Source: Escherichia phage JN01. Taken from it: a stretch of DNA of 64,000 bases. The notes beneath the pieces are model-generated. The model saw only the letters and a program-made list of their open reading frames with translations. It searched no databases and was not told where the DNA came from. The position numbers were made by a program, and so were the translations under genes. Shown here in pieces: positions 12,727-25,565 of this stretch. Each line of letters begins with the position of its first letter. Position 1 is the stretch's first letter. The DNA is taken from sequence record MN882542; one strand, written 5' to 3'.

Positions 12727-12741
12727 TAAGTAATTTCTTAA

Positions 12742-12770
12742 AAGGCTGCTTCGGCGGCCTTTTTTATTTG
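12742..12770 (+). terminator. intrinsic terminator
   Basis: GGCTGC-ttcg-GCGGCC hairpin followed by TTTTTTATTT. Confidence 0.6.
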
Positions 12771-12800
12771 TATTTTGTGCAGAGTGCTGTATAATTGTGG
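12768..12800 (+). promoter_or_regulatory. candidate sigma70-type promoter
   Basis: TTTGTA, 17 bp spacer, TATAAT upstream of 12827 ORF. Confidence 0.4.
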
Positions 12801-12826: not shown

Positions 12827-13375
12827 ATGAAGAAGTTGATTCTAGGTTTGTGCTTAATGTTTACAGCACAATTATCTTATGCAGTTGACTGCCCAGAGCT
12901 ATCAATTAGCCAAAAAGTAAACATGTTAAAAGCTTACCAGTATGGTGAGAATAATATGGGTAAAGGTTGGGGTATCACTCTAGCTGCTATAGCCTTACAA
13001 GAGTCAGAGTTAGGTCTGAATATGGAGAATAAAAAGACCCATGACTATGGTATCTTCCAGAATCACTTGAAGACTGTTGTAAAGCGTAACAAAATCAGTC
13101 CTAATGTGGCTAAAAAGAAACTCTTAAAAGACTTTGACTATGCTGCAAAGGAAACACACAAAGAGCTTGAGTTTTGGACGAAGGTGCATGGTCAACCAAA
13201 GTCAAAGAAGACTTTACAAAAAGTTTTAGCGTCATATAATGCTGGGTATTCGTACAAAATCCCTAAAGCTAAGAAATACTCTCAAGATGTCTACAACAAT
13301 ATGAAAGTTATTGCTCAATGTGAATTTGCAACAAACATTTCTAAGGTAAACCATGAAAAAATTAAGAAAGTCTGA
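12827..13375 (+). CDS. secreted protein, possible lytic transglycosylase (SLT)-like
   Basis: N-terminal signal peptide (MKKLILGLCLMFTAQLSYA); LQESEL and DYGIFQ loosely resemble SLT catalytic E-S and GLMQ motifs. Confidence 0.4.
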   Translation: MKKLILGLCLMFTAQLSYAVDCPELSISQKVNMLKAYQYGENNMGKGWGITLAAIALQESELGLNMENKKTHDYGIFQNHLKTVVKRNKISPNVAKKKLLKDFDYAAKETHKELEFWTKVHGQPKSKKTLQKVLASYNAGYSYKIPKAKKYSQDVYNNMKVIAQCEFATNISKVNHEKIKKV

Positions 13376-14058: not shown

Positions 14059-14523
14059 ATGAACAATATCATTACGGTAGCACTGGACGATACGACAAAC
14101 AAATCTGTAGTAGTTCGTAAATTGATTCAAGGTAACTTTGAAGGTAAAATTTTTCGTGCTGTTAATGTAAAAGCTGATGGCAGCATTCGTGAATATCGTG
14201 CATTGTTGAATGTTAAAAAGCACGTAAAAGGTGCTGGTTCAACGACTGCACACAAAGAAAACCTGATGACTATCTATGATATGGGTAAGGCTTCAGAGTT
14301 AGGTGCTGAAGGTATCGTTAAAGAAGGTGCTCCGTATCGCTCTTTCAATCTGGAAACTACTCTTATGCTTTCCTTTACAAGTGGTTCTAAAACAATCACT
14401 TACCTCTTTACTGATGCTGCAACGGTATCTGCTATCAAGGATAGCACCGTCAAAGCTGGGGTAGCTGCTGCTGCAAAAGCTTCTTCGATGGCTGCAAATG
14501 TCCTTGCTAAAGTCCTCGGTTAA
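14059..14523 (+). CDS. hypothetical protein
   Basis: 154 aa ORF with Ala-rich C-terminus. Confidence 0.5.
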   Translation: MNNIITVALDDTTNKSVVVRKLIQGNFEGKIFRAVNVKADGSIREYRALLNVKKHVKGAGSTTAHKENLMTIYDMGKASELGAEGIVKEGAPYRSFNLETTLMLSFTSGSKTITYLFTDAATVSAIKDSTVKAGVAAAAKASSMAANVLAKVLG

Positions 14524-16380: not shown

Positions 16381-17166
16381 ATGGGTATTGTAAAAATCAT
16401 CAATGGGGACATCTTCTCCGCATTTGATAAAGGTAAGTTTGATATCATTGGTCACGGTTGCAACTGTATGAATTTAATGGGTGCAGGTATCGCTGACAAG
16501 GTTTCTAAACTTTACCCAAAAGCATATGAGACCGATACAGAAGTTTATCTGTATGCAGGTGGTATAGGCCACAAACCCTGTGAAAATTTACTAGGCAATT
16601 TCTCTGTAGCACGTTTAGAACAAGGCCGTATAGCTAACCTTTACACTCAGCTTAAGACTGGTAACGATGCCCGATACAGTGCTTTAGAATCATCTTTGAA
16701 ACAACTTAACAGATACTGTGAAGTTAATCAGTTGAAGAAAGTTGGGTTACCTATGATTGGTGCAGGTATCGGTGGACTAGACCCTCAAGCCGTCACAGTT
16801 ATCATTAATCAGGTGATGAAGAGTGTAGATGTGTATCTGTATGTCTACGAAGGAGAGATGTACCACAAGTTACGCTCAGGTTGGAAGAACTACTGTGAAC
16901 CAGAATACTTTGCAGGTGTAGTAGTGTTCACTGATGATGCAGTTACCCTCTTCAGACGAAGAAAAGGTAAGATACATCAAAGTAACCCTCCGGTTGAAAA
17001 GATGTCTCTAAGTAACGCTCTAGTTACCCACCTGTCGAAGAGCAATCACAGAATTGCAGTAACATTTGGCAGTGATGCAGATACATATATCTATGCAAGA
17101 ACTGATGAGGATGTTGAGGAAATTTTCTCTTCACCGGAAGTTACCTTCTTAGACGCAAAAAACTAA
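16381..17166 (+). CDS. macro-domain-like protein (ADP-ribose binding/processing), tentative
   Basis: N-terminal INGDIFSAF...DIIGHGCNCMNLMGAGIA resembles macro-domain GDIT...D-IVNAAN...GGGV-AI pattern; 261 aa. Confidence 0.45.
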   Translation: MGIVKIINGDIFSAFDKGKFDIIGHGCNCMNLMGAGIADKVSKLYPKAYETDTEVYLYAGGIGHKPCENLLGNFSVARLEQGRIANLYTQLKTGNDARYSALESSLKQLNRYCEVNQLKKVGLPMIGAGIGGLDPQAVTVIINQVMKSVDVYLYVYEGEMYHKLRSGWKNYCEPEYFAGVVVFTDDAVTLFRRRKGKIHQSNPPVEKMSLSNALVTHLSKSNHRIAVTFGSDADTYIYARTDEDVEEIFSSPEVTFLDAKN

Positions 17167-17204
17167 GAAACTCTGTAGAATATTCACAATAGACTAAGCC
17201 TTTC

Positions 17205-17250
17205 TTATCTGGTAAATTTTTCAGGTAAGGAGGGCTTTTTTATTTCAGGA
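17205..17250 (+). terminator. candidate terminator after macro-domain gene
   Basis: Imperfect inverted repeat ending GGAGGGC followed by TTTTTTATTT. Confidence 0.35.
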
Positions 17251-17420
17251 TTGTGCAGGTAGTGTTCTGGACAGAAATCTGTAGAGAGAATTTTGAACTC
17301 CAAAGAGAAAATTCATTTTCAAACTGTGCAGGTAATCTCCAAAGAGCTTTTTCATTTTCAAAACGTGCAGACCCCGCTCAGGTCGGGCAAGAAAAATCAT
17401 TTTAGAATTGTGCAGGTAGG
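17240..17420. repeat. four direct repeats, consensus about TTTCATTTTCAAANTGTGCAGGTA
   Basis: Copies near 17240, 17311, 17351, 17396 in an ORF-poor stretch upstream of the early-region promoter. Confidence 0.6.
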
Positions 17421-17594
17421 TGGGTGTAGGTGGGGATGTCGCCATTTCTCACAAGGCTACCACATCTGAAAAGAGAAGTCAACAGAAAAATTTGTAGCGG
17501 ATTGAAAAATAATTCTTGATTGTAGTTCTGTTTTGTGGTAGTCGCGTGCGCCCGTTTCATTACATTTTTGCCAAAAATATTTTTAAAATTTTTA

Positions 17595-17623
17595 TTGACT
17601 CCTCGAACGGGTTTTTATAGTAT
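17595..17623 (+). promoter_or_regulatory. candidate sigma70-type early promoter
   Basis: TTGACT, 17 bp spacer, TAGTAT; then conserved leader with TAGGAGA RBS before 17677. Confidence 0.5.
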
Positions 17624-17676
17624 TTGCATCAGACGGGGCGACAAGCCCGATAGCCTTAAACTAGGAGAATCTAAAA

Positions 17677-17883
17677 ATGCTATACGGTCGTGAATTGATG
17701 GTTACAACTAACGTTAACACAAATGTAAAACGTTTTTACATGCAAATTTGTGGCGTATGGTCTAGAATATCAGAAGCTGATTATTGCAACTATGTAGAAA
17801 CGGCAATCAACTCTGATTGTTATCTTACAAGGAATACTAAAAAATTTACGAGACAGACAGCAGTTTATTACTACGATATCTAA
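17677..17883 (+). CDS. hypothetical early protein
   Basis: 68 aa ORF behind conserved leader/RBS. Confidence 0.5.
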   Translation: MLYGRELMVTTNVNTNVKRFYMQICGVWSRISEADYCNYVETAINSDCYLTRNTKKFTRQTAVYYYDI

Positions 17884-17971
17884 TAAAGTACTTTACAAGG
17901 GGTTTAAAAGTTGATATCTTAAGCCCCAGATAAAGAGCTTTATCAACAACCTTAAACTAGGAGATTCAAAA
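17884..17971 (+). promoter_or_regulatory. intergenic cassette type 1 (promoter overlapping stem-loop, conserved leader and RBS)
   Basis: TTTACA, 17 bp, TATCTT; stem GGGGTTTAA...TTAAGCCCC; then AGATAAAGAGCTTTA...CCTTAAACTAGGAGATTCAAAAATG. Confidence 0.55.
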
Positions 17972-18352
17972 ATGGCATATCGTGCACCTAAATTCATCAA
18001 TAAAGACAACTTCCGCAACGCACTGGAAAAATCACTTGACGAGAATTTTACAGGTCAGATTATTGTTGTTCACGCATTCAATTTTAAGTATGACATTAAC
18101 GGGAACAGAATCAACCATTACACGGCAACCATGTTAGATGGTGCGCTTTCAAGTGAAAAAGCCGTACTGAATGCGCTTGCTGGACGTGGTAAAAACCTGA
18201 TAAGATGCGATAAGAGACGTTATCAAGGTGGCGCATATGGTTATGATGATGCTGTTTACCATCTTGAAAATATGGGCTATTCAGTGGAGAAAGCTGGAGC
18301 GTCTCAAATAATCGGTAGTGATGGTTATGTGACAATTTTCAAAATTAACTGA
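17972..18352 (+). CDS. hypothetical early protein
   Basis: 126 aa ORF with conserved start context aaaATGGC. Confidence 0.55.
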   Translation: MAYRAPKFINKDNFRNALEKSLDENFTGQIIVVHAFNFKYDINGNRINHYTATMLDGALSSEKAVLNALAGRGKNLIRCDKRRYQGGAYGYDDAVYHLENMGYSVEKAGASQIIGSDGYVTIFKIN

Positions 18353-18440
18353 TAAAGTACTTTACAAGGGGCTTATAGTTCGATAAAGTAAGCCCCAGAT
18401 AAAGAGCTTTACCACTCAATCCTAAATTGGAGATTCTAAA
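18353..18440 (+). promoter_or_regulatory. intergenic cassette type 1
   Basis: TTTACA-17-TAAAGT with stem GGGGCTTAT...AAGCCCC; conserved leader and AGGAG/TGGAG RBS. Confidence 0.55.
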
Positions 18441-18698
18441 ATGGCTATTATCAAAAACGTTGTAATTACTGCAAAAACTCGCGATGACGCTCGCATCATG
18501 GCGAAAAAGTTAGGCGGGAAAGTTGTTGACAACGGAAAACAATCTGCTGTAAGATGGGGCGTGAAGGCTGATAAACAACTAACCTTAAAACGCAGTTCAA
18601 ACAATCTTTTTAAAGGTGTAAAATCACTCGGTAAAGTGAACGTGTTTACCAAAAAAGGCTATAAAATGCACTTATCATTAACTGGCAATTTAATCTGA
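18441..18698 (+). CDS. hypothetical early protein
   Basis: 85 aa basic ORF. Confidence 0.55.
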   Translation: MAIIKNVVITAKTRDDARIMAKKLGGKVVDNGKQSAVRWGVKADKQLTLKRSSNNLFKGVKSLGKVNVFTKKGYKMHLSLTGNLI

Positions 18699-18788
18699 TA
18701 AAGTACTTTACATGGGGCTTAAAAGCTGATATCTTAAGCCCCAGATAAAGAGCTTTACCACTCAATCCTTAAACTAGGAGATTCAAAA
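18699..18788 (+). promoter_or_regulatory. intergenic cassette type 1
   Basis: Near-identical copy of 17884..17971 (TTTACA-17-TATCTT, GGGGCTTAA stem). Confidence 0.55.
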
Positions 18789-19301
18789 ATGAAAACTGTA
18801 GACGCTACCTTTGAAGTTGTAAAAGAAAAATTCACCATTATTTATGAAGCTATTAATTGCTTTGAAGCAAGCCATAATCTTGATAATTGGAAGTTTACAG
18901 ATGACCATCAAGGCGGCGTGACTGTTAAAAATCCCAACTGTCAGCGTAATGATTTTAAATATGCAATCCCTTTACATTACAGCCTTAAACAGCTTTCAAG
19001 TGACTATGCAAAACAAGGCCGGGAAAATCCATCAAAAGAGGCTTACATCAGCTTACAGAAAGAACTAGAAAGAGATTTGGATGCTTCAGAGTATAACATT
19101 GCCGCTAAAGTTGTGGATGCCAACGGTAAAACGATTTTAGACAGTTTTTATATTGGTTACGCTTTCGATTGGTGCTACAGTGACGGCGATGATTTAGATG
19201 ACAGGCTAAAAGAGGAAGTGAACAACGCAGACGCAGAATCTGAAGTATTAGAACGCTTGGAAGCATTAAAAGATTCAGTGATGAATATCTTTAAGGACTA
19301 A
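18789..19301 (+). CDS. hypothetical early protein
   Basis: 170 aa acidic ORF. Confidence 0.55.
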   Translation: MKTVDATFEVVKEKFTIIYEAINCFEASHNLDNWKFTDDHQGGVTVKNPNCQRNDFKYAIPLHYSLKQLSSDYAKQGRENPSKEAYISLQKELERDLDASEYNIAAKVVDANGKTILDSFYIGYAFDWCYSDGDDLDDRLKEEVNNADAESEVLERLEALKDSVMNIFKD

Positions 19302-19392
19302 ATAGACCTCTTTACACGGGGCTAACAAGCTGATATGATAGCCCCAGATAAAGAGATTTATCAAATTAACCCTTAAACTAGGAGATTCTAAA
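19302..19392 (+). promoter_or_regulatory. intergenic cassette type 1 variant
   Basis: TTTACA-17-TATGAT with stem GGGGCTAAC...AGCCCC; conserved RBS. Confidence 0.5.
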
Positions 19393-19689
19393 ATGAAATT
19401 ATCAAATAAAGTTAGGGAAAACCTTAGCAAATTACTCAATAAAATTGATTTTATCGAGACATCAAGAAATAGTCATGATGTTATGGAATGGTTACACGGC
19501 AAAATAAAAGGCCGTCGTGTAGTGATTTGCTTATGGAACAGTTGCAGGGAGTATAAAAAACCTGTATTGCAAGTTAATATATACGATAATACTTTTAAAA
19601 GTCCTGTTAAATCTAAAAGTGATTTATTAGAATCTTATGAGATAACTGTAAATGGCAAGGTATCACGTAAAGAGGTAACACCATGTTAA
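19393..19689 (+). CDS. hypothetical early protein
   Basis: 98 aa ORF. Confidence 0.55.
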   Translation: MKLSNKVRENLSKLLNKIDFIETSRNSHDVMEWLHGKIKGRRVVICLWNSCREYKKPVLQVNIYDNTFKSPVKSKSDLLESYEITVNGKVSRKEVTPC

Positions 19690-20015
19690 TGATGGGTATC
19701 ACTGCAATCATTGCCATTATAGCACTTTATAAGGCTTACAGCGCATATAATTTGGCAAGTAAGGCAATCACGCAGCAGGTCAATAATAACCTTGTAATGA
19801 GCTTTCTGGAGCGTTTAAGCGATGAACAAATAAAACGGTTAGAAATGAGCTTCAGATTTCAATCAAAAACTTATCAAATCAGCGACATTTTCAAAGATGA
19901 TTTTCAGCTTGTCGATGATTATAACTCTCTGATAAATGCTTTAAATATCAGTGATTTAAAAGATTATCATGCTGTAATAGTTCAAGAATTGAGCAAACGA
20001 AAAAATTCCTCTTGA
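19683..20015 (+). CDS. hypothetical membrane protein
   Basis: 110 aa; hydrophobic N-terminus (MGITAIIAIIALY). Confidence 0.5.
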   Translation: MLMMGITAIIAIIALYKAYSAYNLASKAITQQVNNNLVMSFLERLSDEQIKRLEMSFRFQSKTYQISDIFKDDFQLVDDYNSLINALNISDLKDYHAVIVQELSKRKNSS

Positions 20016-20105
20016 TTTTGGTTTTTAAAACAAGTAAATTACTAATCAACGGGGAGGGAATGACCTTCCCCACTAAGTAAAGTCCTTAAACTAGGAGATT
20101 CGAAA
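20016..20105 (+). promoter_or_regulatory. intergenic cassette type 2 (promoter, then leader stem-loop GGGGAGGG/CCTTCCCC, then RBS)
   Basis: TTGATT, 17 bp, TAAATT; leader ACTAATCAACGGGGAGGGAATGACCTTCCCCACTAAGTAAAGTCCTTAAACTAGGAGATTC. Confidence 0.55.
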
Positions 20106-20378
20106 ATGTATACTACTAACAATGGTCGCACTTTGAACGTAACCCTGCGCCACTATGTGAACGGTGTAATGCACTTCGAGGATTTACAAGCTGAACAACA
20201 TATATTGGATTGGCAACTTGCAGGACTCCAAAAAACTGCTACCGGATACGGGAAAAAGATTCCAACTAGCTGGAAAGTATACTACGAAGGACGTTTGCGC
20301 AGAATTTATCAAGATGTATGCAGCAATAGCGCATCAAGTTACATCATGGTAAAAGGTAAAAAATTACACTTAGTATAA
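20106..20378 (+). CDS. hypothetical early protein
   Basis: 90 aa ORF. Confidence 0.55.
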   Translation: MYTTNNGRTLNVTLRHYVNGVMHFEDLQAEQHILDWQLAGLQKTATGYGKKIPTSWKVYYEGRLRRIYQDVCSNSASSYIMVKGKKLHLV

Positions 20379-20463
20379 AGTACTTTACAAGGGGCTTATA
20401 GTTCGATAAAGTAAGCCCCAGATAAAGAGCTTTATCACTCAATCCTAAATTGGAGATTCTAAA
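20379..20463 (+). promoter_or_regulatory. intergenic cassette type 1
   Basis: Copy of 18353..18440. Confidence 0.55.
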
Positions 20464-20868
20464 ATGGCTATTAATAATCGTGAGTTATCAATCTTAAAAG
20501 CACGTTTGACCGTTAACCGGATTAATGTTATTACGTCATCAGCACCTGATGAGACATTGCACAACATTATCGGGAAGATTCAAAGTGTTATCTTAGACGT
20601 TGAAAGCGTAAAAAACTCACTGGCTGACGTTGCAGCAGGTATCACGCTAGACGGTGCACAATATGAAATGGCTGACATGTTAGGCAAATCTAAGGTAATG
20701 AATAAAGAGCTTGATTTAAAAATGTTTCGTTTTGCTGTTAAAGTGTGGCTATCTGTCGAGTATGACGCAAATTTTGCAATCGCTGACTTTTTTGCAACAT
20801 GGTTGCAACGTAATTTAACAAATCATGATTTTCGTGATATCTGCGATGTAATTTACGCAGAACTATAA
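20464..20868 (+). CDS. hypothetical early protein
   Basis: 134 aa ORF. Confidence 0.55.
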   Translation: MAINNRELSILKARLTVNRINVITSSAPDETLHNIIGKIQSVILDVESVKNSLADVAAGITLDGAQYEMADMLGKSKVMNKELDLKMFRFAVKVWLSVEYDANFAIADFFATWLQRNLTNHDFRDICDVIYAEL

Positions 20869-20971
20869 AAATTTTTCTTGATTTTGGTTTTTAAAACAAG
20901 TAAATTACTAATCAACGGGGAGGGAAGGACCTTCCCCACTAAGTAAAGTCCTTAAACTAGGAGATTCAAAA
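20869..20971 (+). promoter_or_regulatory. intergenic cassette type 2
   Basis: Copy of 20016..20105 with one base change in the stem-loop. Confidence 0.55.
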
Positions 20972-21172
20972 ATGGCTATTATTAACGGCTTAAACATTGA
21001 AACTACTCACATCAAAGACATTAAAGTCGGTGATGTAGTCCTTTCCCACGGCGTAGAAAAAACTGTCACTGCAAAGGATATCAAAGAGGATTCTTTCATG
21101 GGTAGAACTCTCTTCGGTGATTCTTATTGCTTAGGTTATCTTGCAGTTTTAAAAGTTGTCAAAAATAACTGA
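20972..21172 (+). CDS. hypothetical early protein
   Basis: 66 aa ORF. Confidence 0.5.
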   Translation: MAIINGLNIETTHIKDIKVGDVVLSHGVEKTVTAKDIKEDSFMGRTLFGDSYCLGYLAVLKVVKNN

Positions 21173-21267
21173 TAAAGTACTTTACAAGGGGCTTAAAAGC
21201 TGATATCTTAAGCCCCAGATAAAGAGCTTTACCACTAAATCAAGTCCTTAAACTAGGAGATTCAAAA
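21173..21267 (+). promoter_or_regulatory. intergenic cassette type 1
   Basis: TTTACA-17-TATCTT with GGGGCTTAA stem; conserved leader and RBS. Confidence 0.55.
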
Positions 21268-21810
21268 ATGAAATGCTTTCACGGTACTACTCAAGAAAAC
21301 TTCATCAACTTAATTAATAACGGTGATAAACCATCAGGCGCATGGAATTGTTCGGATATGGATGGCAATTTTTACGTTTATCCAGAAAATAAAATCTATG
21401 GCGACGATGAGGAAGAAATAATCTCTGAAGGCATTCAACAAGCTTTAGGCAATGCCACTATAACGGCAGCTTTTCAGATGAAAACTCAAAATATTGTTAT
21501 CTTAGAACTTGATATCCCAGAGGATGAGTTGAATGATGATTATTCTTGTGATAATATGTCGAGCGTAGCAAGTTTTACAGAATACTTCGATTTAAATTGG
21601 ATTAAAAAGGTTTACGTAACCGAGTTTAATGCAATGTTTTCACCTTTTTGTCTTCCTTCACTGGATAACCCAAATTTAAACTATCTTGAGGAGACATTAG
21701 AACTACTTGCTAAAAGTGTTCAACAGTCGGACAGTATTCAGGTTTTTTGTGACATCATGGATACACTGACAGGAAACATTACAGAAGAGGATTTAAAGAG
21801 CTTTTTATAA
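21268..21810 (+). CDS. hypothetical early protein
   Basis: 180 aa acidic ORF. Confidence 0.55.
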   Translation: MKCFHGTTQENFINLINNGDKPSGAWNCSDMDGNFYVYPENKIYGDDEEEIISEGIQQALGNATITAAFQMKTQNIVILELDIPEDELNDDYSCDNMSSVASFTEYFDLNWIKKVYVTEFNAMFSPFCLPSLDNPNLNYLEETLELLAKSVQQSDSIQVFCDIMDTLTGNITEEDLKSFL

Positions 21811-21876
21811 TAACCTATACAATCACCTTATAAATACTGATTATCCCCTCATAGGGGCTTTTAGGAGGCTTAAATC

Positions 21877-22119
21877 ATGCTTACAACCATTTACCTCATC
21901 CTTTCTATTTGTAATGGTCATTCATGCGATTTTAAAGGGCTTGAGGAGTTTACAGGGAGTAAAGAAAATGCCGTTCAAGTGTGCCAGATAGCAAGGCAAG
22001 ACTATCCCGCCAGTGATGATATACAATGTTACTTTAAGACAGAAGATGAAGACGGTATCTATTTTGACAGCGTAGATGGTCAATATGAAATTATCATTGA
22101 AAAGACTAGACAAGCCTGA
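21877..22119 (+). CDS. hypothetical protein
   Basis: 80 aa ORF, hydrophobic N-terminus, TAGGAGG RBS. Confidence 0.5.
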   Translation: MLTTIYLILSICNGHSCDFKGLEEFTGSKENAVQVCQIARQDYPASDDIQCYFKTEDEDGIYFDSVDGQYEIIIEKTRQA

Positions 22120-22198
22120 TAAAAGTCTGTAAATTGTCAATCAACGGGAGGTAATAACCTCCCCACTAAGTAAAGTCCTTAAACTAGGAGATTCTAAA
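22120..22198 (+). promoter_or_regulatory. intergenic cassette type 2 variant
   Basis: TAGACA-17-TAAATT; stem GGGAGGTAATAACCTCCCC; conserved RBS. Confidence 0.5.
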
Positions 22199-22540
22199 AT
22201 GGCTTATGTAACCGTAATTACCGATAAAGCTGGCTCATCTTGGTCAACTCAAGTAAGTGATAAGATGTCACCTATGCAGTGCCTAAAATACTTTGAGCAA
22301 TGGAACAAAGGCGAGAATGTCAGCCCCTTTCAAGTCATGCAGATTATCCATACAGATAACGAAGGGAATAAAACTGTTTTGAATAGTGAGTACTACGCAA
22401 CCCGATTTGAAACGAGATGTAAAGCAATGAAGCTTTTGCGTGAGTCTGGTTATTCTCATATCGCCTCACTAATCTGGGATGACCTGCTAAAAAATCAGCG
22501 TATCAGCTATGTAAAACCTGAAAAAATATTCATCAGTTAA
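22199..22540 (+). CDS. hypothetical early protein
   Basis: 113 aa ORF. Confidence 0.55.
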   Translation: MAYVTVITDKAGSSWSTQVSDKMSPMQCLKYFEQWNKGENVSPFQVMQIIHTDNEGNKTVLNSEYYATRFETRCKAMKLLRESGYSHIASLIWDDLLKNQRISYVKPEKIFIS

Positions 22541-22760
22541 TCAATAACTTACAAAAAACTTTTTAAAAAGTATTGACAATACCCCTTGACATTGGTAAAT
22601 TTGTTCGAGGGGGTTTATCTAAAAGGGATTAACTTAAAAGATTCTTTATAGATAAGCTTAAAAAATTGCTTGCAATCAGATATCAAAACAAGTAAATTAC
22701 TAATCAACGGGAGGGATAACCTCCCTACTAAGTAAAGTCCTTAAACTAGGAGATTCAAAA
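22541..22760 (+). promoter_or_regulatory. extended intergenic region ending in a type 2 cassette
   Basis: Tandem TTGACA boxes near 22572 and 22586, then TTGCAA-17-TAAATT, stem GGGAGGGATAACCTCCC and RBS. Confidence 0.45.
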
Positions 22761-23291
22761 ATGAACAAGTTCAAAGCTATCAACTTCATTCGTTCAAATA
22801 GTGTTATGTCAAAGCCTGTTAAAGATACCTATGAATTTCGTTGCAATGGGGTGCATTTTGCAACCATCACCAAATCAGAAAACGGAGCTTATTACATCCA
22901 TCGCCGTAATGTTGCAACCGTTGTTGTCTCTCACTTTATGCAAGCTGTCGCGGAACTTCTCCCGATGTTTTTAGGGCTTTACTTGGATGAGTGTAAAAAC
23001 GTTCACAATCACGTTAAAAACCTTTTAAACAGCTATAAAATGGCTTATGAACGTTCTATCAAGTCATTGAACAAGTTTTACAACGCACCTGAAAACACTG
23101 TGTCAATAGCCTATGGTGTAAGCGGTGAAATGGTAAACTTATCCAATGTGGAAGAAATCAAGCTGCATGATTTACGCCCTAACGGTTACGCTAAAACCAT
23201 CGGTGAAGGTTTAACTTTCAATATCAAGAACTTAGAAAAAACTTTAAAAGATATTGAAAAAGATATTGACGAGACAATCAAAAGTCTGTAA
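22761..23291 (+). CDS. hypothetical early protein
   Basis: 176 aa ORF. Confidence 0.55.
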   Translation: MNKFKAINFIRSNSVMSKPVKDTYEFRCNGVHFATITKSENGAYYIHRRNVATVVVSHFMQAVAELLPMFLGLYLDECKNVHNHVKNLLNSYKMAYERSIKSLNKFYNAPENTVSIAYGVSGEMVNLSNVEEIKLHDLRPNGYAKTIGEGLTFNIKNLEKTLKDIEKDIDETIKSL

Positions 23292-23357
23292 ATTGTCAAT
23301 CAACGGGGAGGGAATGACCTTCCCCACTAAGTAAAGTCCTAAACTGGAGTTATCAAG
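23292..23357 (+). promoter_or_regulatory. intergenic cassette type 2 variant
   Basis: TAAATT box and GGGGAGGGAATGACCTTCCCC stem; divergent RBS GGAG. Confidence 0.45.
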
Positions 23358-23621
23358 ATGGAAAACGTCGAACTGACCACACTTTTACAAATTGCAACCG
23401 ACAAAGAGGATGTAGCATTATTCCACCGTATCGAAAGTGATTTGTTCAATGGTGAAATCATTAAAGAATCTTACGAAGTGGTCGGATTCAAAGATGGTAA
23501 ATCATTTGGATTCTTTGACCTCGACAAAGGCAACGCTATTACAAAGTATGATGTTTTATCTTGTGAGATTCTGACAAAATACAACGAAAAAAGACTTGCA
23601 ACATACGCCAACATGCAGTAA
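23358..23621 (+). CDS. hypothetical early protein
   Basis: 87 aa ORF. Confidence 0.5.
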   Translation: MENVELTTLLQIATDKEDVALFHRIESDLFNGEIIKESYEVVGFKDGKSFGFFDLDKGNAITKYDVLSCEILTKYNEKRLATYANMQ

Positions 23622-23686
23622 ATTACTAATCAACGGGAGGGATGACCTCCCTACTAAATAAAGTCCTTAAACTAGGAGATTCTAAA
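23622..23686 (+). promoter_or_regulatory. intergenic cassette type 2
   Basis: TTGCAA-17-TAAATT overlapping the end of the previous ORF; stem GGGAGGGATGACCTCCC; conserved RBS. Confidence 0.5.
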
Positions 23687-23935
23687 ATGGCAACTATCCG
23701 CGCAATTGTAAATTCTTATGGCTGCTACACTCTGGACGCTAAATTTGATATTGGTGGGACTGATGAGTGTTTCGAACTGGTGAAGACAGTCATTAAACAA
23801 GTTATCCCAGACTATAACCCTACTGATGACTTCTGGAAAGATGCAGTAAAAGAGGCGTTGAACGATGAATATCATTACCATTATTGGGGTGACTTGATTG
23901 TCTCACTGTACTACAATAAACAAGGTTGCAACTAA
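23687..23935 (+). CDS. hypothetical early protein
   Basis: ORF-track start 23642 lies inside the cassette; conserved cassette ATG at 23687 gives MATIRAIV. Confidence 0.5.
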   Translation: MATIRAIVNSYGCYTLDAKFDIGGTDECFELVKTVIKQVIPDYNPTDDFWKDAVKEALNDEYHYHYWGDLIVSLYYNKQGCN

Positions 23936-23961: not shown

Positions 23962-23996
23962 GATACCTTTACAGCCCCTTAAATGGGGCTTTTTTA
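23962..23996 (+). terminator. intrinsic terminator closing the rightward early block
   Basis: AGCCCC-ttaaat-GGGGCT hairpin followed by TTTTTTAC. Confidence 0.6.
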
Positions 23997-25534
23997 CGTC
24001 TTATCAAATCCTATACAACCCTTTTCCTTTCCTTTCCAGAATCTTACTAGACCTTAAAAAGCAATAACTTTATAGCCTTTTACTAAGTCAATTAATTGGC
24101 CTTGTTAATAATCCCTTAAATAAAAGACAATAACCCCAGAAAGGGGGTAACCCATTTAAACGCCCTATAAAGCCCTATAACGGCCTTTTTAACCTAACTT
24201 AAGGGATTGCATTAACTAACCTTAAAAAGCCCTTTATAAAGCTTCTCAGAGCCTTAAAAGAATCTTATAAGGGTGTAAGCTTTATTATCTCGTTAGCTAT
24301 CTTGTGAACTACTAAAAAGGGCTTGTTAGTGTCTTAAAAGTATGTTATAGGGGCTATAAAGTTGCTTAAAAGTAGCTTAAAAGTTACGTAAATGCTAGCC
24401 CCCTTAACATTTTCTTAACAATTTCTTAACAAACCCTACATAGTTATGCTTTTAAGACACTTGTTAGCAACTTGTTAGCCCCTTGTTAAATCTCTGTTAA
24501 AACCACGTAAAAGCCTTGTAAGAGCCTTTGACATAGCCTTTAAAGCTCCTGTAAAGCCCTATAAAGAGCTTTCTACATAGTTGGTGTGTAATTACTAGAA
24601 AGAGACTAAAAAGAGCTTATAAGGAGCTATAAAGGGCTTTTAAGAGGGCTATTTAAAGGGTCACTAAGAGGGAAAGGGAACGATAAGAAAAGAGATAGTG
24701 ACCATGTTAATAGCTTGTTAAAAAGATTAAACACTTGTTAGGAACTTGTTAATTATCTTAACAAAATAACTCTTTAAAATTAACTTGTTAGCTCTTGTTA
24801 GTCATCTGTTAAGACTCTGTAAAGACCATGTATCAACTGTTAAGAAACTGTTAAGTTCTTGTTAGTTCTGTTAAGAATCTGTTAAGACCTCTGAAGAGAT
24901 GTTAAGAGGATGTAGTAGCTGTTAAGAGATTGTTAAGGATATTTTAAAATTCTGCAAAGGGATGGTAAGGGAGCTGTTAAGGGCTACCAAGCAGATATAC
25001 ATCCTAATCAGATATTTTTCAGTTCCTTCAAAGACCCTAAAAAATGACTTGATAGTCCTATTTTATAAAAATTTTAAAATTCTGAATAATTACCTAGACA
25101 GTCTTCTAAAAATACAGGCATAAACAGGCTTATAAGATACCTTGTTAGTACCGTGTTAGACCTTGTGAGATAAGGTCTGTAAAGATATTCCTGTTAAGTT
25201 TGTTAAAACAGTCTATATAGAGGCTTAGTATTTCCTAGTGAACACCTATAGAGGGTATCATAGCTGACATAGAGATTAAGAGGTGTATAGGAGCTTCTAA
25301 GAGGGTGTAGAGGTATGGTTAAGGTGATTGTATAGGTTGTTAAGAAGGCTTGTTAGAAGAGTGTTTAGAAGGGCTATACAGAGGGGCTATTAAGACCACT
25401 AGATAGATACTAAGATACTATATAGTACTATATAACTATATAGAGAGTAAGATTAAGAAGGATGTTAAGAAGGGTAGATATTTTATTCACATATGATGGT
25501 GACCCAGAGGTTGGGACAACCGATAAAATTTTAT
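23997..25534. repeat. ORF-free island densely packed with short motifs (C/T)TGTTA(A/G), CTTAAAAG, CTATAAAG
   Basis: No ORF of 60 aa or more on either strand; 30 or more TGTTA-type motifs, about 11 bp apart between 24735 and 24990. Confidence 0.7.
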
Positions 25535-25565
25535 AAAAATTAAAAAGCCCCCAATTAAGGAGGCT
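25535..25565 (-). terminator. intrinsic terminator closing the leftward block
   Basis: Minus-strand RNA reads GCCUCC-UUAAUU-GGGGGC then UUUUUAAUUUUU. Confidence 0.55.

Follow-up and report, generated by a model that had tools for sequence, protein, structure and literature searches.

A conserved four-unit direct-repeat array in a gene-free gap of Felixounavirus genomes as a candidate regulatory or boundary element

Introduction

Few phages of Salmonella and E. coli are used as widely in diagnosis and therapy as Felix O1 and its relatives, and we know of no account of temporal gene control or of the replication origin in Felix O1-like phages. Here we analyse an array of four direct repeats in a 64,000-nucleotide stretch of Escherichia phage JN01 (sequence record MN882542). 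This whole stretch is hereafter called the window, and positions are counted from its first letter. The window belongs to a Felixounavirus (Ounavirinae) genome of Felix-O1 type. The 2-kb stretch around the array matched 247 phage records with identity up to 98.6%, nearly all of them Felixounavirus and the nearest being Escherichia phage vB_EcoM_ULIM9, and the presence of 25 tRNA genes in the window is consistent with this group.

Results

The repeat array and its gene-free gap

The array sits in a 510-bp gene-free gap, with the terminator of an operon running from rIIA to a macro-domain gene on one side and the promoter of a series of small genes on the other. A preliminary description of this DNA, made from the letters alone, had reported four direct repeats in this gap, and they are present on the same strand and at the place given there, with start-to-start distances of 73, 39 and 45 bp. 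The 28-nt units, displayed with 18 nt ahead of GTGCA, and their scores with a 28-nt position weight matrix are as follows.

17235-17262, plus strand: unit 1, T-type, CTTTTTTATTTCAGGATTGTGCAGGTAG; 33.5 bits; kept in relatives
17308-17335, plus strand: unit 2, A-type, holding the palindrome GAAAATTCATTTTC, AAAATTCATTTTCAAACTGTGCAGGTAA; 34.6 bits; kept in relatives
17347-17374, plus strand: unit 3, T-type, CTTTTTCATTTTCAAAACGTGCAGACCC; 31.6 bits; kept in relatives
17392-17419, plus strand: unit 4, A-type, AAAAATCATTTTAGAATTGTGCAGGTAG; 34.6 bits; kept in relatives

The same description spoke of four copies of the 10-mer TGTGCAGGTA, which slightly overstates the case: the 10-mer is exact in three units, and unit 3, whose 3′ flank differs among relatives, reads CGTGCAGACC. 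Unit 1 carries TTATTTCAGGA, not TTCATTTTCAAA. The 64 kb hold three exact copies of the 10-mer, all within the array, against an expectation of 0.13, and none of 100 shuffled sequences reached three occurrences. The matrix gives the units 30-35 bits, where 13-19 bits would be expected by chance, and the next best match in the window reaches 12-18 bits, the level of the best matches in shuffled sequences. In the complete 87.6-kb genome of UAB_Phi87, the matrix found the four units, a site after rIIB described below and one chance-level match without GTGCA. Thus neither the window nor the whole UAB_Phi87 genome holds the motif outside the gap and one promoter site, and it does not recur at similar frequency elsewhere. 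Judged from the aligned units, the motif appears to be bipartite, consisting of TCATTT, 7 variable bases and GTGCA, followed by a lineage-specific 3′ flank.

Conservation of the array in related phages

Every Ounavirinae sequence examined carries the array. It recurs across four genera (Felixounavirus, Mooglevirus, Suspvirus and Kolesnikvirus), its units in unchanged order and at nearly the same spacing, in all the related phages with this organisation, and the proposal of a functional site survives this comparison. The unit spacing is 73/39/45 bp in Felixounavirus and SUSP2, 75/41/45 bp in Mooglevirus and SUSP1, and 37/37/39 bp in Kolesnikvirus (phiEa21-4, MM7 and phiEa104). Comparison of the unit offsets (0, 37, 74 and 113 in Kolesnikvirus; 0, 73, 112 and 157 in Felixounavirus) indicates that Felixounavirus lacks the second Kolesnikvirus unit while retaining its distance, and that Kolesnikvirus lacks the last unit. 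Between genera, the unit positions hold to 1-4 bp despite diverged spacer sequence. When the gap was compared with Erwinia phages by blastn, only the repeat stretch at 17312-17414 could still be aligned.

Conservation was measured as the major-allele frequency over 23 distinct Felixounavirus and Mooglevirus gaps. The blocks TCATTT (0.97) and GTGCA (0.98) are conserved like the promoter -35 (0.98) and -10 (0.94) hexamers, the 7 bases separating the blocks and the spacers between units are less so (0.86 each), and the remainder of the gap stands at 0.80. Two invariant blocks about one helical turn apart with a variable middle suggest the pattern of protein-binding sites. In the 3′ flank, all four Kolesnikvirus units have ATAGR where those of Felixounavirus and Mooglevirus have AGGTA, and the ATAGR form is found in Kolesnikviruses recorded on Salmonella, Hafnia and Cronobacter as well as on Erwinia. 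A few Felixounaviruses, those of the Si3 type, have three units, the middle one joining the 5′ half of unit 2 to the 3′ half of unit 3 in a 39-bp fusion, which is consistent with unequal recombination between units.

A search of IMG/VR for the two-unit pattern returned 32 loci, 29 of which are Ounavirinae contigs bearing the array; the other three, on non-Ounavirinae viral contigs, are unrelated tandem repeats. Among 185,579 species representatives scanned, no tandem motif pair was found in Enterobacterales genomes, and the matches in other genomes were likewise unrelated tandem repeats only. No comparable gap was found at the macro-domain locus of Pakpunavirus, a more distant relative.

A fifth site after rIIB

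The related site that had been placed near 12768-12800 is real and conserved, and is located at 12759-12786:

12759-12786, plus strand: isolated fifth site CTTTTTTATTTGTATTTTGTGCAGAGTG, directly after the rIIB terminator (12740-12763)

TATAAT (12790-12795) lies 7 nt past CTTTTTTATTTGTATTTTGTGCAGAGTG; the T-rich block of the site overlaps the -35 position of a promoter-like site and GTGCAG lies within its spacer. HK3, UAB_Phi87 and Si3 share the fifth site without a change. Mooglevirus-type loci have it in the form CTTTTTTATTTGAAAAATGTGCAGG...TATAAT (22 bits), in which both blocks are retained and the intervening bases vary. The terminator merging into unit 1 closes the operon that this promoter-like site would serve, and the motif therefore brackets that operon. 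A weak second match lies 73 bp downstream of the fifth site, which is the distance between units 1 and 2. Only through the fifth site is the motif linked to transcription.

The gene at 12827-13375, which the putative fifth-site promoter would serve, encodes a 182-amino-acid (aa) protein with an N-terminal signal-peptide-like sequence, MKKLILGLCLMFTAQLSYA. Its match to the SLT lytic transglycosylase domain (E 0.004) misses the Pfam cut-off.

Other elements of the gap and neighbouring genes

The other elements of the gap and the genes on its two sides are listed below; gene names were taken from the HK3 record.

16381-17166, plus strand: macro-domain 'phosphatase' gene, last of the operon (HK3 annotation)
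17196-17237, plus strand: strong intrinsic terminator closing the operon (terminator scan: 17-pair stem and T run)
17298-17307 and 17337-17346, plus strand: repeated spacer CTCCAAAGAG, which precedes units 2 and 3 and gives a 39-bp tandem unit
17417-17475, plus strand: strand-skewed tract after unit 4 (alignment; conservation 0.68-0.81, the lowest of the gap)
17477-17516, plus strand: AT-rich block AGTCAACAGAAAAATTTGTAGCGGATTGAAAAATAATTCTTGA between array and promoter (major-allele frequency 0.92-1.0 over the 23 gaps)
17572-17623, plus strand: AT-rich upstream stretch and sigma70-type promoter-like site ahead of the first small gene
17677-17883, plus strand: first small gene

The T-tail of the terminator is the T-rich half of unit 1. 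The repeated spacer CTCCAAAGAG is conserved in Felixounavirus and Mooglevirus. One of nine occurrences of AAAGAGCTTT (0.5 expected) lies in an array spacer, at 17341. The tract after unit 4 is G-rich, GGTAGGTGGGTGTAGGTGGGG, in the window phage and ULIM9, and C-rich, CCCCTCTTACTCCCCCTCTCCCC, in most relatives including Kolesnikvirus; this difference is a replacement or inversion of a strand-skewed element. The AT-rich block at 17477-17516 is better conserved than the promoter hexamers, and two GAAAAAT...GATT half-repeats lie within it at a distance of about 19 bp; no counterpart of it was found in Kolesnikvirus. Apart from this invariant 40-bp block, the array is the most conserved non-coding element of its gap. 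The candidate promoter proposed at 17595-17623 was borne out as a promoter-like site, with TTGACT (17595-17600), a 17-nt spacer and TAGTAT (17618-17623), and its TTGAC is conserved in relatives including Kolesnikvirus. The array units lie 175-360 bp upstream of it. Conserved AT-rich stretches are thus located at 17477-17516 and 17572-17594, and the second is also promoter-upstream DNA.

In annotated relatives, the plus-strand series upstream of the gap comprises rIIA, rIIB, polynucleotide kinase, spanins and the macro-domain 'phosphatase', and the operon that ends at the macro-domain gene begins at about 12.8 kb. The gap is followed by some 15 small plus-strand genes with unassigned function, a block that extends over 17677-23935. 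They are the sole genes between the array and the terminus, toward which they are transcribed. The name 'early region' for this block is inferred from the size of its genes and from its promoters.

The small-gene block is built of repeated cassettes (17883-21270; for example 18352-18450 and 20375-20473), each with a promoter-like TTTACA-N17-TAAAGT/TATCTT, a GGGGCTTA...TAAGCCCC stem-loop between the hexamers and then AGATAAAGAGCTTTA. We take these cassettes to resemble the 'promoter-early stem-loop' cassettes of T4-type phages. Ten near-identical translation-start modules, CCTTAAACTAGGAGATTCAAAAATG, precede small genes in 17651-23692, and the Mordin record marks a 14-bp core of this module as a repeat_region.

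Coding, RNA, promoter and DnaA box candidates

It is hardly credible that a small protein gene or a structured RNA spans the repeats. A 66-codon minus-strand open reading frame (ORF; 17245-17445) is open in Felixounavirus, a 64-77 codon ORF is open in Mooglevirus, and GenBank coding sequences (CDSs) have been placed over the repeats as three plus-strand ORFs in ULIM9 and as one minus-strand ORF in Moogle and Mordin. However, the variable columns show no codon periodicity in the four crossing ORFs (p 0.69-0.96), in agreement with the earlier statement that the repeat stretch has no convincing ORF. The longest ORF is closed in Kolesnikvirus though the DNA repeats persist there, the unit spacings 73, 41 and 37 are not divisible by 3, and composition alone leaves two of the three frames of a unit stop-free. 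The start-codon context is also weak compared with the standard ACTAGGAGA ribosome-binding sites of the phage. The CDSs annotated over the array in ULIM9, Moogle and Mordin are thus probably overcalls. As for RNA, the folding z-scores were +0.06, -0.49 and -0.81, and an Rfam scan of the window returned tRNAs only, with no match at the array.

Tandem sigma70 promoters were rejected, since no promoter-like site was found on either strand in 16805-17595; the array units lack a -10 where the fifth site has one. A cluster of DnaA boxes was rejected for the window phage, in which each core has three mismatches to TTWTNCACA and the gap holds no consensus box; the only consensus DnaA boxes of the window lie outside the gap. 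The Kolesnikvirus unit cores have one mismatch each to the DnaA box. Classical phage operators do not fit either, since the units are asymmetric direct repeats far from the promoter and only the fifth site overlaps one.

Position of the genome terminus

Felixounavirus direct terminal repeats measure about 580-613 bp (PMC4837284, PMC6454146, PMC8303462). An exact 613-bp repeat at both ends of the Ro111lw record corresponds to window positions 24398-24988, and the reported SpeI end fragments of UAB_Phi87 (4322 + 2819 - 608 = 6533 bp) agree with a 6568-bp SpeI fragment that its record has in the same region. This position of the terminal repeat places the array about 7.6 kb, or about 8.7% of the genome, inside the right end. 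A direct terminal repeat or packaging site in the gap was thus rejected, since the true repeat maps elsewhere and the gap is single-copy in nearly all records (220 of 222).

Some records carry end duplications. In the Erwinia phage BoyaciRG1, the first and last 1232 bp are identical and cover exactly the repeat gap and its flanks, and EAP4 has rearranged duplicates, with scrambled ends, of the same stretch. These duplications are probably assembly overlaps, since in at least 11 other Kolesnikvirus records the end lies downstream of the gap, about 7 kb away. The UAB_Phi87 record JN225449 has an exact 542-bp end duplication (1-542 and 87062-87603) in the tRNA region, which disagrees with the published 608-bp repeat and SpeI fragments (true ends near record 15.1-15.8 kb) and looks like an assembly overlap.

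The direct terminal repeat lies in a 1.55-kb gene-free stretch between convergent terminators (23990-25543). The hexamer TGTTAR occurs 24 times in the 591-bp repeat, 20 times on the plus strand, compared with about 0.9 per 500 bp elsewhere, and the stretch also contains the larger repeats ACACTTGTTAGCAACTTGTTA and TGTTAAGACTCTGTTAAGAC. These repeats are candidate terminase or end-replication signals.

Candidate binding proteins

The 26 proteins encoded in the neighbourhood (12.8-23.9 kb) were compared with protein families, and four of them with PDB sequences, where no relative with a solved structure was found. Conservation across Felixounavirus, Mooglevirus and Kolesnikvirus was seen for three basic proteins near the array. 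The best conserved of them, of 154 aa with an isoelectric point of 9.7 (14059-14523), retains 60% identity down to Kolesnikvirus and was found in Ounavirinae only. Its AlphaFold model, a confident one (predicted local distance difference test score, pLDDT, 81), is beta-rich with a long C-terminal helix.

Discussion

Role of the array

From the pattern of the units, it is very probable that some protein binds them, and somewhat probable that the phage itself encodes this protein. The 3′ flank tracks the phage lineage in all units irrespective of host, and the Enterobacterales genomes scanned contain no tandem sites, both of which point to a phage-encoded binder. The 'phage or host regulator' of the preliminary description can thus be narrowed: a phage protein is favoured, and a host regulator is less likely on the same two grounds. 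We consider that one sequence-specific, probably phage-encoded protein may read each two-part unit, and that the copies, bound at fixed distances, may form a nucleoprotein complex at the border between the operon terminator and the first small-gene promoter. Such a complex would act as a boundary, shut-off or activating element for the terminal small-gene block, and the same protein would also act at the single site overlapping the post-rIIB promoter-like site. We slightly favour this regulatory or boundary role over a replication origin, mainly because of the fifth site and the position of the array between a terminator and the first promoter. The fifth site keeps both blocks in two genera, over the -35 and spacer and together with a perfect TATAAT. 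That the role of the array is transcriptional rather than replicative is nevertheless held only tentatively. 'Operator/iteron-like sites', as the units had been called, is a fair description in view of the two-block conservation and would cover an operator as well as an origin; the distance to the promoter is too great for a classical operator.

Several observations weigh against a regulatory role. Location 175-360 bp from the promoter, asymmetry and a single orientation are unusual for operators and typical of iterons, and a regulon of just two loci would be odd. The fifth site scores only 18 bits in the window phage, which is chance level by score alone, and it was not found in Kolesnikvirus loci. 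The natural three-unit variants of the Si3 type indicate that the full array is not strictly required. Among the 26 neighbouring proteins, no Rep or other DNA-binding family was found in Pfam, and their PHROGs matches were all of 'unknown function'. The model of the 154-aa protein had no significant Foldseek match in the PDB, the best E-value being 0.07 with a faint similarity to a WYL-type barrel.

An iteron-type replication origin, at which a phage initiator, perhaps one of the small proteins with unassigned function, would bind the repeats and the DNA would open in the AT-rich block or promoter region, is the main competitor, though we regard it as unlikely. It would account for three to four same-orientation, asymmetric, two-part sites about one helical turn long, conserved over four genera, with the invariant AT-rich 40-bp block and the AT-rich promoter region 60-180 bp off. 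A strong sigma70-type promoter adjoins, as at T4 oriE (PMC3016281), and the lone promoter site would suit autoregulation of the initiator if its gene lay in that operon. However, the spacings of 37-45 and 73 bp are off helical phase (3.5, 3.7, 4.3 and 7 turns) and about twice the typical iteron spacing, the gap lacks a consensus DnaA box, and the replication genes are far away. No recognisable initiator gene was found among the 26 neighbours, although an initiator of an unrecognised family could be encoded there. The AT-rich stretch is already accounted for as a promoter upstream element, and there is no GC-skew inflection at 17.3 kb, where the skew follows gene orientation, which is weak evidence. 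By analogy with T5, the array could instead be a DNA-entry stop that marks the inner edge of a first-entering 7.6-kb terminal segment, which seems highly improbable; equally improbable is the corresponding mechanism, in which membrane-bound DnaA or another protein would hold the segment until the small terminal genes are expressed. The terminal repeat at 24398-24988, mapped from Ro111lw in agreement with the UAB_Phi87 end fragments, sets the array about 7.6 kb (~8.7% of the genome) from the right end with small genes only between, and the T5 signal, at 7.9% of the genome, is likewise an untranslated repeat region that is conserved and has DnaA boxes (bioRxiv 10.1101/866236). The Kolesnikvirus cores, one mismatch from a DnaA box, would fit this scheme. 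On the other hand, the cores of the window phage and of Mooglevirus have three mismatches to TTWTNCACA with no consensus box in the gap, the small genes are transcribed toward the terminus from promoters within the segment, and the analogy is one of position alone. Taken as one proposal, that the array and the invariant 40-bp block form a checkpoint cis site, either a primary origin served by an initiator of an unrecognised family or a T5-like entry stop, is possible but doubtful; if true, it would be the first replication origin or entry-stop element defined for Ounavirinae.

The array might also be a functionless relic, left by duplication and decay of a module like that after rIIB, in which a promoter follows a terminator tail, and retained by descent alone. 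Unit 1 and the fifth site both start in a terminator T-tail, the weak match 73 bp past the fifth site mirrors the distance from unit 1 to unit 2, the units have no -10 hexamers, and the variant with a deletion to three units is viable. But the conservation of the blocks matches that of promoter hexamers while the bases between drift, the array persists in genera whose flanking gap no longer aligns, and the lineage-specific change of the 3′ flank is present in all units. We therefore consider a relic very unlikely.

The array is not among the direct repeats and the few promoters that the Felix O1 genome paper reports, and according to that paper it is not understood how transcription is regulated over time (PMC3185647). 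The wV8 and VpaE1 papers, searched by term, gave no relevant mention of repeats or promoters, and no paper in the literature searched links Felixounavirus with iterons, an origin or these repeats. Within that literature, the array has not been described before; it belongs to the familiar class of conserved direct-repeat protein-binding arrays. The 28-bp unit offers a bait for fishing out its binding protein, and the array is a small deletion target that should tell early-gene expression, replication start and genome entry apart; the PhageMaP essentiality library for Bas63 targeted genes only. For phage engineering, inserts or deletions in this apparently empty gap may not be neutral.

Comparison with known systems

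Among transcriptional control sites, the operators OR/OL of lambda and the MotA boxes of T4 differ from the array units, which are non-palindromic, lack a -10 and lie 175-360 bp from the nearest promoter. The likeness is confined to the fifth site, which lies over a -35 and spacer with a good -10, like a MotA box or a promoter-overlapping operator.

With the T5 injection stop, the array shares conserved gene-free repeats at the inner border of a terminal small-gene block (at 7.9% of the T5 genome and ~8.7% of the present one). In T5, the repeat region is conserved above many neighbouring ORFs of the terminal repeat (bioRxiv 10.1101/866236). In the T5 signal, however, inverted repeats, palindromes and paired DnaA boxes form a 1.2-kb nest within a 10-kb terminal repeat, whereas here four direct units lie in 185 bp and a 0.6-kb terminal repeat is 7 kb away. 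The DnaA-box matches are also poor in the units of the E. coli and Salmonella phages.

The lambda ori and the iterons of the plasmids R6K, RK2, F and P1 consist of three to seven same-orientation asymmetric sites, as in the array. Iterons span about two major grooves and are read by two-domain Rep monomers, and the array units are similar in length. AT-rich DNA lies nearby in both cases, and the extra promoter site could serve autoregulation. The array differs in that it has no recognisable rep gene beside it and no DnaA box in the gap, and that its spacing is about double and off helical phase.

T4 oriE differs in its evenly spaced 12-nt repeats, compared with the 28-nt two-part units and uneven distances of 73, 39 and 45 bp here; there is no sequence similarity, and no repEA/repEB homologue was found among the neighbouring proteins. 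The role of the oriE iteron cluster was never established, and it depends on an early promoter (PMC3016281). Both systems have a short direct-repeat cluster in a virulent myovirus that carries rIIA/rIIB, each cluster adjoins small early genes and an early promoter of host type, and related phages conserve it in syntenic regions. By this analogy, T4 oriE may be regarded as the closest parallel for an origin at the array.

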